From positions 283,842-347,841 of the forward strand of contig JAJTFA010000001.1 of NCBI GenBank assembly GCA_021299635.1: a stretch of DNA of 64,000 nucleotides, in the 5' to 3' direction. The DNA is from Sphingobacteriales bacterium (lineage in GTDB: Bacteria; Bacteroidota; Bacteroidia; UKL13-3). Under the pieces are notes generated by a model. It saw only the letters and a program-made list of their open reading frames with translations, was not told the DNA's origin and made no database searches. Positions 33,558 to 34,058 of the stretch are shown here, piece by piece (position 1 is the stretch's first letter; every line of letters begins with the position of its first letter). The position numbers and the translations under genes are program-made.

Positions 33558-33578
33558 AAAAGCCCCTTCGGGGCTTTA
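33558..33578. terminator. Bidirectional hairpin terminator (accA on + ; GIY-YIG/pseudo-tRNA on -)
   Basis: aaaaaaagccccttcggggcttt: 6 bp GC stem, A-run one side T-run other. Confidence 0.75.
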
Positions 33579-33700
33579 GTGGAGGATAACGGAGTCGAAT
33601 CCCGAAACAGTGCCTTTTGAAAAGGCATACTGTTTCGAGGACCCTCGAAAAATTAAGAAATGCAAGCATTTCTATTTTTCGGGGCCGATGACCTCATGAA
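33576..33700 (-). pseudogene. Duplicate of tRNA-Ala 3' portion split by an 85 nt multi-hairpin insertion in the T-loop
   Basis: tttagtggaggataacggagtcgaa [tcccgaaacag...tttcgggg] ccgatgacctc matches intact tRNA-Ala tttagtggaggataacggagtcgaaccgatgacctc exactly outside the insertion. Confidence 0.85.
33600..33684. other. 85 nt structured insertion element: outer stem cccgaaa/tttcggg enclosing three hairpins
   Basis: hairpins aaacagtgcctttt/aaaaggcatactgttt, ttcgagg/ccctcgaa, agaaatgc/gcatttct; closes on itself; located exactly at T-loop position of the pseudo-tRNA. Confidence 0.6.
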
Positions 33701-33956
33701 ATTTAAATCCATTCTTAAGACAAAAATCATTTTGTCTGGCTCTTGATTTTAAGTTTTTGAGTTTACGCTCCATACTCAAAGCTTCAGTTCTGGATTGCAC
33801 TGCAAGAGAAGCAAATAAAACCCATGGCACCGCAGTTTTAGTTGATTGGTTTTTACCTGAATTGTGTTTTCTTATTCTTTCAGTTAAATCAGCTGTCTGG
33901 CCGATGTACCTTTTATCAGTAGAATGGGAATAGATTATGTAAACCCAGTATTTCAT
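33672..33956 (-). CDS. Mini GIY-YIG nuclease-family protein (94 aa), paralog of 32106-32357
   Basis: MKYWVYIIYSHSTDKRYIGQTADLTERIRKHN GIY-YIG motif; ~40% identical to the first copy; start codon 5 nt after tRNA-Ala terminator U-tract; last ~9 codons are encoded by the insertion end plus tRNA-derived ccgatgacctc. Confidence 0.8.
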   Translation of the reverse strand: MKYWVYIIYSHSTDKRYIGQTADLTERIRKHNSGKNQSTKTAVPWVLFASLAVQSRTEALSMERKLKNLKSRARQNDFCLKNGFKFHEVIGPEK

Positions 33957-33961
33957 TAATG

Positions 33962-33982
33962 AAAAAGGCCCAATGGGCCTTT
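33962..33982 (-). terminator. Intrinsic terminator immediately after tRNA-Ala
   Basis: aggcccaatgggcct 6 bp GC stem followed by uuuuu on minus-strand RNA. Confidence 0.75.
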
Positions 33983-33984
33983 AG

Positions 33985-34058
33985 TGGAGGATAACGGAGT
34001 CGAACCGATGACCTCTTGCATGCCATGCAAGCGCTCTAGCCAGCTGAGCTAATCCCCC
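33985..34058 (-). tRNA. tRNA-Ala (anticodon GGC), G3:U70 identity pair present, CCA not encoded
   Basis: Manual fold: acceptor gggggau/auccucc with G3-U70, D-arm gcuc..gagc, anticodon stem cuugc/gcaag loop auGGCau, T-arm aucgg uucgacu ccguu (one mismatch), discriminator A; 74 nt. Confidence 0.88.

Follow-up and report, generated by a model that had tools for sequence, protein, structure and literature searches.

Mini GIY-YIG genes linked to hairpin-interrupted tRNA copies in a Sphingobacteriales genome: a possible homing-type element of tRNA genes

A stretch of 64,000 nucleotides (nt) from a Sphingobacteriales bacterium (assembly GCA_021299635.1, contig JAJTFA010000001.1, positions 283,842 to 347,841), here called the window, holds only two tRNA genes, and each of them carries one small module with a gene for a GIY-YIG protein. 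All features of the two modules, termed A and B, lie on the minus strand, and coordinates refer to the window (Table 1). In module B, which adjoins accA, tRNA-Ala(GGC) is followed by a hairpin with a run of five T, an open reading frame (ORF B) for a GIY-YIG protein of 94 amino acids, a copy of tRNA nt 44-54, an 85-nt insert, a copy of nt 55-75 together with the spacer, and a second terminator. Module A measures about 340 bp and follows the same plan, leading from tRNA-Asp to a GIY-YIG ORF of 83 amino acids (ORF A) and on to an interrupted copy of the tRNA-Asp T-arm. An initial annotation, made from the letters of the window, had described module B in this layout, and every element was found on the minus strand at the coordinates that it gave. 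It had also regarded the two modules as one architecture, with which the identical order of tRNA, GIY-YIG ORF and interrupted tRNA copy agrees; the identity between the two proteins, given there as about 40%, was measured as 38% over 71 amino acids.

The piece downstream of ORF B had been described as a tRNA 3' half cut at the T-loop. Indeed, exact copies of tRNA-Ala nt 44-54 and nt 55-75 enclose exactly 85 nt, which places the break at the canonical position 53/54, where the T-stem 5' strand ends and the T-loop begins with its first T. From the break to the tRNA 3' end (nt 55-75 plus spacer) the module thus forms a direct repeat, while the upstream tRNA-Ala is intact. This repeat, D3, spans the spacer and the terminator and extends over 43 nt with 88% identity (33557-33599 versus 33962-34004, 405 nt from start to start). 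The ATG of ORF B lies 5 nt past the T run of terminator 1, and the tRNA copy together with the first arm of the 85-nt insert supplies its last codons (..HEVIGPEK and the stop). Terminator 1 was not listed by a simple terminator scan of the window because its T run is short. A scan for promoter-like sites found none between tRNA-Ala and ORF B; such sites occur only upstream of the tRNAs. In module A, a 16-nt palindrome, ccccgagtactcgggg (32077-32092), replaces gagtcc inside the T-loop of the tRNA-Asp copy.

Table 1. Features of modules A and B and of the sequence upstream of them, in window coordinates.
Feature	Position	Strand	Remarks
Promoter-like site TTTGCA-17-TATATT	34240-34268	-	Ahead of the pseudo-tRNA repeats and tRNA-Ala; the sole promoter-like site ahead of module B
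Pseudo-tRNA-Ala repeat 1	34142-34225	-	tRNA nt 1-13, hairpin TCCCGATCATAATCGGGA in the D-loop, nt 17-26, hairpin TCCCGATGAAATCGGGA, nt 44-51, agtgaagaaaaaaaa
Pseudo-tRNA-Ala repeat 2	34059-34141	-	Composition as repeat 1
tRNA-Ala(GGC), intact, with G3:U70	33984-34058 (ARAGORN); 33985-34058 (Rfam tRNA, 59.7 bits)	-	Same sequence as the tRNA of the empty L057 site (100% identity)
Terminator 1, hairpin aaggcccattgggcc and T5	33962-33981	-	Left part of direct repeat D3; read from the letters
GIY-YIG ORF B, 94 amino acids	33672-33956	-	UPF0213/YhbQ-like, catalytic domain only; ORF list, Pfam
Exact copy of tRNA-Ala nt 44-54 (gaggtcatcgg)	33685-33695	-	Variable loop and T-stem 5' strand; sequence match
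85-nt insert with two bulged hairpins	33600-33684	-	H1 CCCCGAAAAAT..ATTTTTCGAGGG with an inner hairpin, H2 TCCTCGAAACAG..CTGTTTCGGGA; covariation, folding
Copy of tRNA-Ala nt 55-75 and spacer (ttcgactccgttatcctccactaaag)	33574-33599	-	T-loop, T-stem 3' strand, acceptor 3' strand; repeat D3; nt 55-75 exact at 33579-33599
Terminator 2, aaagccccgaaggggcttt and T run	33552-33577	-	Listed by the terminator scan as 33577-33559; in the place of the native tRNA-Ala terminator, adjoins the accA stop
Promoter-like site TTGACA-16-TATATT	32504-32531	-	Upstream of tRNA-Asp
tRNA-Asp(GTC), intact	32406-32482	-	ARAGORN, Rfam
GIY-YIG ORF A, 83 amino acids	32106-32357	-	38% identical to ORF B; its clade is linked to tRNA-Asp in other genomes
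Interrupted copy of tRNA-Asp T-arm and acceptor 3' strand	32065-32104	-	ggtcgcgggttc, palindrome CCCCGAGTACTCGGGG, cgtccgcaccgc; repeats D12, D16
Diverged copy of tRNA-Asp spacer and terminator	32004-32050	-	Right end of the module A repeat; repeats D6, D7

The repeat in module B is real, since seven independent assemblies (metagenomes of the JGI and two metagenome-assembled genomes (MAGs) from NCBI) match positions 33552-34270 at 98.8-100%; the assembly artefact that had been named as a possible source of the tRNA copy is thereby dismissed. We compared the locus with that of the syntenic relatives L057, L092, L093, L094, L095 and L096/L097, in which accA is 81-92% identical. Against those relatives in which tRNA-Ala directly precedes the terminator and accA (accA 82-92%), module B is an insertion of about 405 bp. 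The tRNA-Ala(GGC) site is empty in L057 (accA 91% identical at the amino acid level), L092 (92%), L093 (86%) and L094 (82%), the last with one degenerate hairpin-bearing pseudo-tRNA upstream, and no tRNA-Ala was found in the locus of L096 and L097 (81-82%). The closest view of an empty site is given by L057 with about 78% DNA identity overall, the same gene order and a tRNA-Ala(GGC) that is 100% identical; there are no upstream repeats, and the terminator and the accA stop follow directly. The tRNA-Asp site is likewise polymorphic. It is empty in L093, L094, L096 and L097, holds only a 48-codon remnant of the ORF A homologue (GIY-A) in L092, and is occupied in L057 and L095 (accA 82%), with GIY-A 60% and 70% identical, respectively. 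The search for empty sites that the initial annotation had proposed is therefore positive for both tRNAs.

At the tRNA-Ala site of L095 we found an ORF of another clade, 35% identical to ORF B, together with two short hairpins, one in the anticodon arm and one in the T-loop, and without the 85-nt insert. The other clade of the ORF and the different hairpin layout identify this locus as an independent invasion. Module B is present in L010, which has 92-96% nucleotide identity to the window. There the two copies of the direct repeat agree in all of 47 nt, whereas they have diverged in the window, a pattern that would fit gene conversion, short of proof.

A word-indexed protein search with ORF B returned two proteins only and is too insensitive for such a short and diverse family. 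Relatives were therefore collected by a pattern-based genome scan, with one genome per species and an alignment of ORF A, ORF B and P0002, which yielded 79 loci with GIY-YIG genes of 80-108 amino acids. Their context was counted in 78 loci, the close relative of the window being left out; 11 of the 78 are cut by contig ends. A tRNA on the same strand lies at most 200 nt upstream of the ORF in 44 of the 78 loci, and these tRNAs represent 16 anticodon species. In bacteria at large, some 1% of genes would lie so near to a tRNA. Seven of the 78 loci have a tRNA directly downstream of the ORF, and in two a gene for transfer-messenger RNA (tmRNA) is adjacent. The ORF is always on the tRNA strand, and behind almost every ORF the 3' part of its tRNA recurs as a copy, which begins exactly at T54 in L001, L010, L011, L020, L022, L023, L029, L030, L036, L037, L038, L041, L054 and L059. 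Homologous modules that lack any tRNA fragment would have spoken against the earlier description; nearly all of the 44 loci with an upstream tRNA carry its 3' copy. The same layout recurs in dozens of other genomes, in line with the earlier claim of a common mechanism rather than chance.

Most loci belong to Bacteroidota (Saprospiraceae, Chitinophagales, Cytophagales, Flavobacteriales, Bacteroidales), and others come from MAGs of Calditrichota and Chlorobiota/Melioribacteraceae. Bins labelled as Candidate Phyla Radiation (CPR), Aminicenantia or Gammaproteobacteria may be mis-binned, and L072, labelled 'Saccharibacteria', looks mis-binned because it is near-identical to L070, labelled 'Bacteroidetes'. 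A search of 2.9 million viral contigs gave three weak, partial matches of 32 residues, from which we conclude that the element is not phage-borne, and tblastn against the plasmids of PLSDB gave no match.

Tandem arrays are a further property of the family. At least two ORF copies are present in 16 loci, and the array unit consists of the tRNA from T54 to its 3' end, the spacer, the ORF, the stub and the hairpin. Three units of 415 nt follow tRNA-His in L038, four units of 346 nt follow tRNA-Leu in L054, and L058 (Algoriphagus halophytocola) holds seven or more units of about 397 nt each. Native copies are present in A. halophytocola TR-M5 and in Eudoraea adriatica DSM 19308. The homologue nearest to ORF B (65% identical, L001/L002) shows the same architecture at tRNA-Ala(GGC) in another genomic context, and there the module is iterated. 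The right edge of the direct repeat varies, with 24 nt in L054, about 52 nt in L038 and 47 nt in L010. A fixed-length target-site duplication left by a staggered cut was rejected on account of this range (24 to about 52 nt). The metagenome contigs L001 and L002 both terminate within the repeated module; arrays of this kind break short-read assemblies, and copy numbers in MAGs are hence probably underestimates.

Both window proteins match the Pfam GIY-YIG family (PF01541), ORF B with an E value of 6e-15 (55.7 bits; cut-off 22.6) and ORF A with 2.3e-15. The residues Y6, Y17, G19, R27, H31, N32 and E63 are kept in 96-99% of 98 ORF copies, B and A included, and most of the 98 ORFs are 79-108 amino acids long. 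The ratio of nonsynonymous to synonymous substitution rates (dN/dS) is 0.09-0.27 between orthologues as well as between copies within an array; one near-identical Eudoraea pair with few differences gives 0.83. The ORF is thus under purifying selection, which together with the kept catalytic residues speaks for a live predicted nuclease. Since the catalytic domain fills these proteins of 83-94 amino acids, there is no room for a DNA-binding domain. The sole sequence match in the PDB is 1ZG2, the UPF0213 protein BH0048 of Bacillus halodurans (E 7e-8 over residues 1-83), and stand-alone proteins of such type were placed in the Slx1 cluster by an earlier survey (PMC1564403). The NCBIfam model for group I intron endonucleases covers residues 5-40 only, with 21 bits versus a cut-off of 56, and PADLOC and PHROGs gave marginal matches to the N-terminal motif only (best PADLOC match E 2e-4 over 34 residues). 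We found no integrase in or beside any module: the sole ORF with a domain match between the repeats is the GIY-YIG gene, and the neighbours are housekeeping genes. The ORF clades track the identity of the tRNA (Asp, Asn, Ala-GGC, His, Val/Arg/Leu-TAA) and the type of hairpin, with occasional switches, such as between the sister ORFs at Leu-CAA (L022) and Pro-TGG (L023), whose T-arms are near-identical.

In the relatives, the interrupted tRNA copy carries a hairpin at the break, with the constant stem T-CCCGA/TCGGG-A at a variable position. This hairpin stands in place of the anticodon arm in L081, L082, L068, L087, L060 and L058, in the T-loop in the Asp clade, L072 and L082, and in the D-arm in L084 and L018. 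Eudoraea shows reversed polarity, with a pseudo-5' part and the hairpin upstream of the ORF and an intact tRNA-Asp downstream. Across the relatives the tRNA is broken at 19/20, about 36/37, 53/54, 60/61 or 65/66, or whole arms are replaced; a universal 53/54 break was consequently rejected. The earlier statement that the interruption sits exactly at the T-loop thus stands for both modules of the window and does not always extend to relatives, where breaks also occur in the D-arm, the anticodon arm and on the acceptor side. The motif CCCGA-N0-14-TCGGG occurs 71 times in 223.5 kb of related loci versus 0-4 times in shuffled sequence, and within the window it is confined to module A and to pseudo-tRNA repeats upstream of tRNA-Ala, described below. 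Short repeats near tRNAs could in principle arise by chance, and we found no other support for chance or a collapsed or chimeric repeat as the origin of the modules. The seven assemblies, the recurrence in dozens of species and the count of the motif (71 versus about 0.6 expected) refute this explanation, to which we assign practically no probability.

The 33 distinct short hairpins have stems of 5-8 bp, with T·A (25) or C·G (6) as the outer pair and one G·T pair, and the hairpin seems to co-diversify with the nuclease. An origin of the hairpin as a palindromised local copy of the T-loop was rejected, since the same TCCCGAGTACTCGGGA is found in D-arm and anticodon-arm contexts. Other stem sequences were seen at like breaks, namely TGCTGAC..GTCAGCA, TATTGAC..GTCAATA and TTCTGGC..GCCAGAA (L046:1630-1700, L049:1200-1300 and the inserts of L022, L023, L029 and L054), so that the CCCGA/TCGGG stem is common and not universal.

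The 85-nt insert of module B is an expanded two-hairpin version of the T-CCCGA...TCGGG-A hairpin. We aligned 13 distinct copies of it from Ala, His and Leu loci. Compensatory changes were found in 19 of the 30 pairs, and no pair varies on one side only. Pairing is realised in 96.1% of the cells, compared with 74.0 ± 1.6% in shuffled alignments, none of 500 of which reached the observed value, and with at most 57.5% when the pairing was slid; the covariation score is 0.538 versus 0.137. An alternative pairing of the four arms, as outer and inner stems, was rejected because covariation at columns 1:51 and 53:94 backs H1 and H2. The approximately 342 paired cells contain three G·U pairs. Furthermore, both strands of the insert region fold alike as single-stranded DNA (-30.8 and -31.5 kcal/mol, z -7.7 and -7.9). 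The near-absence of G·U pairs and the equal folding of the two strands point to a constraint on both strands, and this suggests a DNA hairpin or cruciform rather than an RNA. In Rfam 15 there is no family for the insert or the hairpin; the window gave only the two tRNAs above the gathering score, and 20 related loci gave only tRNA.

Directly upstream of tRNA-Ala we found two tandem pseudo-tRNA-Ala repeats of 84 nt (family D1, 96% identical; 34059-34225, minus strand), which the initial annotation had overlooked; it likewise did not contain the conserved hairpin motif or the conserved structure of the 85-nt insert, and it named no mechanism. In both of them the 17-nt hairpin TCCCGATGAAATCGGGA takes the exact place of the 17-nt anticodon arm, and an A-rich tail stands at the end. 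Each repeat contains two TCCCGAT..ATCGGGA hairpins, and no ORF lies between the repeats. Their number changes between close relatives, from two in the window and one in L010 to a single degenerate copy in L094 and zero in L057, L092 and L093. We regard them as candidate non-autonomous derivatives, or else as possible leftovers of an element with reversed polarity.

Some further observations concern the related loci and the surroundings of the modules. Two Saprospiraceae genomes (L017:1501-2264 and L025:1501-2210) have a GIY-YIG ORF 57-111 nt upstream of ssrA, and the stretch between the two genes contains AT-rich hairpins as well as a pseudo-copy of the 5' end of the tmRNA; the family hence occupies tmRNA genes too. 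Runs of hairpin-bearing pseudo-tRNA pieces without an ORF, spaced by 80-130 nt, occur in L055:1170-1960, L085:580-1810 and L019:1299-2945. Five copies of CCCGACTAGAAGTCGGG surround one ORF in L055, and in L085 two ORFs, tRNA-Ile, tRNA-Val and four hairpins are intermixed. Interrupted copies are at times miscalled as genes, as with the 'tRNA-Cys(aca)' that ARAGORN reports in L081 (1743-1822), and the Rfam tRNA model scores the pseudo-copies L083:1746-1827 and L084:1804-1864 with 30.7 and 29.9 bits (threshold 29). A sub-threshold match to the Flavo-1 RNA (31.4 bits versus a gathering score of 42, E 0.0011) lies a short way downstream of module A, at 31794-31872 on the minus strand, and beside it a GC-rich palindrome of 16+16 nt (31759-31790). 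By the empty tRNA-Asp site of L093 there is a gene for a 641-amino-acid protein with a SIR2_2 domain (L093:268-2193), a gene family that is frequent in anti-phage systems; the window has a dihydrolipoyl dehydrogenase gene there.

We see about an even chance that the modules are a small selfish homing-type nuclease element, which lives in tRNA genes by duplicating the part that it displaces. This reading draws on the insertion polymorphism, the repeated independent invasion, the decaying remnants and the arrays, and equally on the many target tRNAs plus tmRNA, the restoration of the target gene and a nuclease family known for homing. The anatomy of the modules, the insertion polymorphism, the arrays, the conservation of the hairpin and the purifying selection on the ORF are directly seen. 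The element would be made up of a spare tRNA part from the break to the 3' end with its terminator, a promoterless nuclease gene of 80-108 codons, a stub of the tRNA before the break, and the hairpin. Its insertion at 53/54 would leave an intact tRNA upstream and shift the original 3' piece to the far side, behind the hairpin. We infer a nuclease activity, its target and a repair pathway along the following lines. The nuclease would be expressed by read-through from the tRNA promoter and would cut the same tRNA gene in its naive form, close to where the hairpin sits in the interrupted copy. Recombinational repair with the element-bearing copy could then follow, in which the intact tRNA is the pairing partner of the left end and the displaced 3' piece that of the right end, and the spare 3' part, terminator, ORF, stub and hairpin would be copied in. 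The two tRNA-derived pieces would serve as portable homology arms, usable in any genome with that tRNA. The hairpin would shield the displaced piece from cutting and may also be the structure that the Slx1/UPF0213-like nuclease recognises, and tandem arrays could arise by re-cutting of the restored tRNA and misaligned repair.

Several points weigh against a homing element of this kind. Cleavage activity and specificity are predicted properties of the protein, and it is difficult to see how a catalytic domain alone, with no DNA-binding domain, would recognise a tRNA gene by its sequence. Since the presumed target persists in the restored tRNA, the element would cut the very gene that hosts it, unless cleavage is weak or easily repaired. 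The position of the break differs among relatives, and cutting at the T-loop can hence not be universal. Homing alone would not require a constant hairpin sequence or exact replacements of arms by hairpins, and purifying selection on copies in old arrays is not predicted for a purely selfish gene. Moreover, the viral contigs and PLSDB plasmids contained no copies on phages or plasmids that could act as carriers between cells.

These weak points leave room for the hairpin as a recognised structure and cis-acting end. It is possible, if rather improbable in our judgement, that the mini GIY-YIG gene and the T-CCCGA...TCGGG-A hairpin form an unrecognised class of minimal mobile element. Its Slx1-like, structure-specific nuclease would read the extruded hairpin or cruciform, the hairpin would be the cis-acting end, and the element would enter the D, anticodon or T arms of tRNA and tmRNA genes by a hairpin swap, with duplication of the displaced segment. 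Recognition of the hairpin would explain its constancy at variable positions, the exact replacement of arms, the hairpin-only pseudo-tRNA repeats and targeting without a DNA-binding domain. The module could also move by plain recombination, as a circle that is excised between the direct repeats and re-enters by a single crossover inside the tRNA-derived segment, or with the help of another element's integrase acting in trans, like an integrase-less, att-flanked cis-mobilizable element (CIME); the nuclease would then be cargo or a local stimulator at the hairpin. A single crossover of a circle that holds the part from the break to the 3' end would leave an intact tRNA upstream and a 5'-truncated copy downstream, exactly as seen, and a circle with the 5' part would account for the reversed polarity in Eudoraea. 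The variable right edge of the repeat is predicted by recombination and not by a fixed staggered cut, the repeats in L010 are homogenised relative to the window, and the anticodon and T-loops of tRNAs are classic crossover sites of integrases, as reportedly described by Williams in 2002. Nevertheless, we consider plain recombination unlikely: an integrase gene is missing in and beside all modules, the hairpin separates positions that would adjoin each other in an att core, one would not expect passive cargo to keep its nuclease ORF intact and under purifying selection in every array unit, and the nuclease clades track the target tRNA and the hairpin type.

A role at the RNA level, as a host or addiction function, appears quite unlikely. 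The protein would act on the tRNA or its precursor, and the interrupted copy with its hairpin, a tRNA-like RNA partner, would serve as decoy or processing signal, or as an antitoxin RNA like those of type III toxin-antitoxin arrays. Such a role could account for an ORF that is always on the tRNA strand and has no promoter of its own, for anticodon arms swapped for hairpins of equal length so that the tRNA-like outline is kept, and for purifying selection on the protein even inside arrays. An Slx1-like GIY-YIG domain fused to a tRNA methyltransferase of the TrmH type, for which the authors proposed an RNA role, also counts in its favor (PMC1564403). Stems that nearly lack G·U pairs and fold equally on both strands argue instead for DNA. 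The patchy presence at orthologous loci of close relatives, the decayed remnants and one locus invaded twice independently speak against an RNA function as well, a linkage to at least 16 tRNA species and tmRNA is hard to square with a tRNA-specific host role, and no significant match to a defence model was found (best PADLOC match E 2e-4, 34 residues). The GIY-YIG fold, moreover, is not known to have RNase activity. The order of ORF 3' end, structured element, short stretch identical to the flank of the insertion site and terminator resembles TnpB and its right-end RNA (reRNA), and one might think of an RNA-guided nuclease of the obligate mobile element-guided activity (OMEGA) type. Here the 85-nt insert would be the scaffold RNA, and the following 23-26 nt of tRNA sequence would guide homing to the tRNA gene, as in TnpB/reRNA. 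We regard this as highly improbable, because a 94-amino-acid protein with the GIY-YIG catalytic domain alone is set against RuvC/HNH nucleases of several hundred residues, the 'scaffold' has almost no G·U pairs, most relatives have just a hairpin of 14-20 nt whose position in the pseudo-tRNA varies, and the hairpin lies upstream of the ORF at the reversed-polarity loci.

The selfish homing-type element that we favor shares traits with several known systems. Its nearest solved relatives by sequence are the UPF0213/YhbQ proteins (COG2827; BH0048, 1ZG2), which have the same size and a single domain. Slx1-type enzymes are structure-specific and cut branched and hairpin DNA. Such a specificity would fit the conserved DNA hairpin and may hold for the window proteins too. 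Linkage to tRNAs, a hairpin or mobility are undescribed for UPF0213 in the searchable literature. Integrative elements that target tRNA and tmRNA genes (phages, integrative and conjugative elements (ICEs), genomic islands, tycheposons) replace the displaced 3' part, keep the gene intact, create a direct repeat from the crossover to the 3' end and can form tandem arrays. Module B resembles them in the restored tRNA and the direct repeat from the break to the 3' end. Unlike the module, which has 0.35-0.4 kb and no recombinase, these elements extend over kilobases and depend on recombinases of the tyrosine or serine type; the repeat of the module is interrupted by a hairpin, and its sole protein is a predicted hydrolytic nuclease. 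To our knowledge, GIY-YIG enzymes hydrolyse DNA and are incapable of strand transfer.

The closest precedent for the proposed cutting at the T-loop is SegB of phages T4 and T6. This GIY-YIG enzyme cleaves tRNA genes at RAWTSGAAC, a motif whose reverse complement, GTTCSAWTY, is the T-loop sequence, and it causes the unit of tRNA plus segB to be amplified in tandem (PMC13096335). SegB and the modules have in common a free-standing GIY-YIG nuclease gene among tRNA genes, in the case of SegB a phage tRNA cluster, and the tandem amplification of tRNA and nuclease. The window proteins are chromosomal, have 83-94 amino acids and contain nothing but the catalytic domain, whereas SegB is encoded by phages, is larger and continues C-terminally past its catalytic domain, and neither a conserved hairpin nor a systematically duplicated, interrupted tRNA copy has been reported for it. 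Homing endonuclease genes of group I introns and inteins are likewise selfish nuclease genes in an essential, conserved gene that is kept functional, and they too are patchy and leave decaying remnants; the module, however, relies on a duplicated part of the gene to preserve function, where introns and inteins rely on splicing of RNA or protein. Presence and absence at a conserved locus among relatives is also typical of free-standing homing endonuclease genes (Seg/Mob), whereas the module proteins have no DNA-binding domain that reads a long target. Repetitive extragenic palindromes (REP) with their REP-associated tyrosine transposases (RAYT) and the ends of IS200/IS605 combine a short, conserved, covarying hairpin with a small nuclease-type gene and have hairpin-only derivatives; their enzymes are HUH/Y1 transposases with covalent intermediates, while the hairpins of the modules are confined to tRNA-derived sequence.

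Free-standing GIY-YIG homing genes and tRNA-restoring integrative elements are already known. New is the combination of a catalytic-domain-only nuclease, a conserved DNA hairpin and a piece of the target tRNA or tmRNA gene that is present in duplicate and interrupted. The full-text literature that we searched, which leaves most subscription journals outside its coverage, contained no description of tRNA-linked mini GIY-YIG genes or of the hairpin.

If the homing-type reading is true, these modules would represent a third way to occupy an essential gene, besides self-splicing introns and inteins and besides integration by recombinases: the displaced part is duplicated, and pieces of the gene become portable homology arms. 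With about 0.35-0.4 kb and one nuclease of 80-100 residues, the element would be among the smallest autonomous mobile units. It appears to be widespread in Bacteroidota and is also present in MAGs of Calditrichota and Chlorobiota. The 'hypothetical GIY-YIG proteins' that flank tRNAs would gain an explanation, and interrupted tRNA copies, sometimes called as genes, are an annotation pitfall. Finally, the defined DNA hairpin is a candidate substrate for the uncharacterised UPF0213/YhbQ family.

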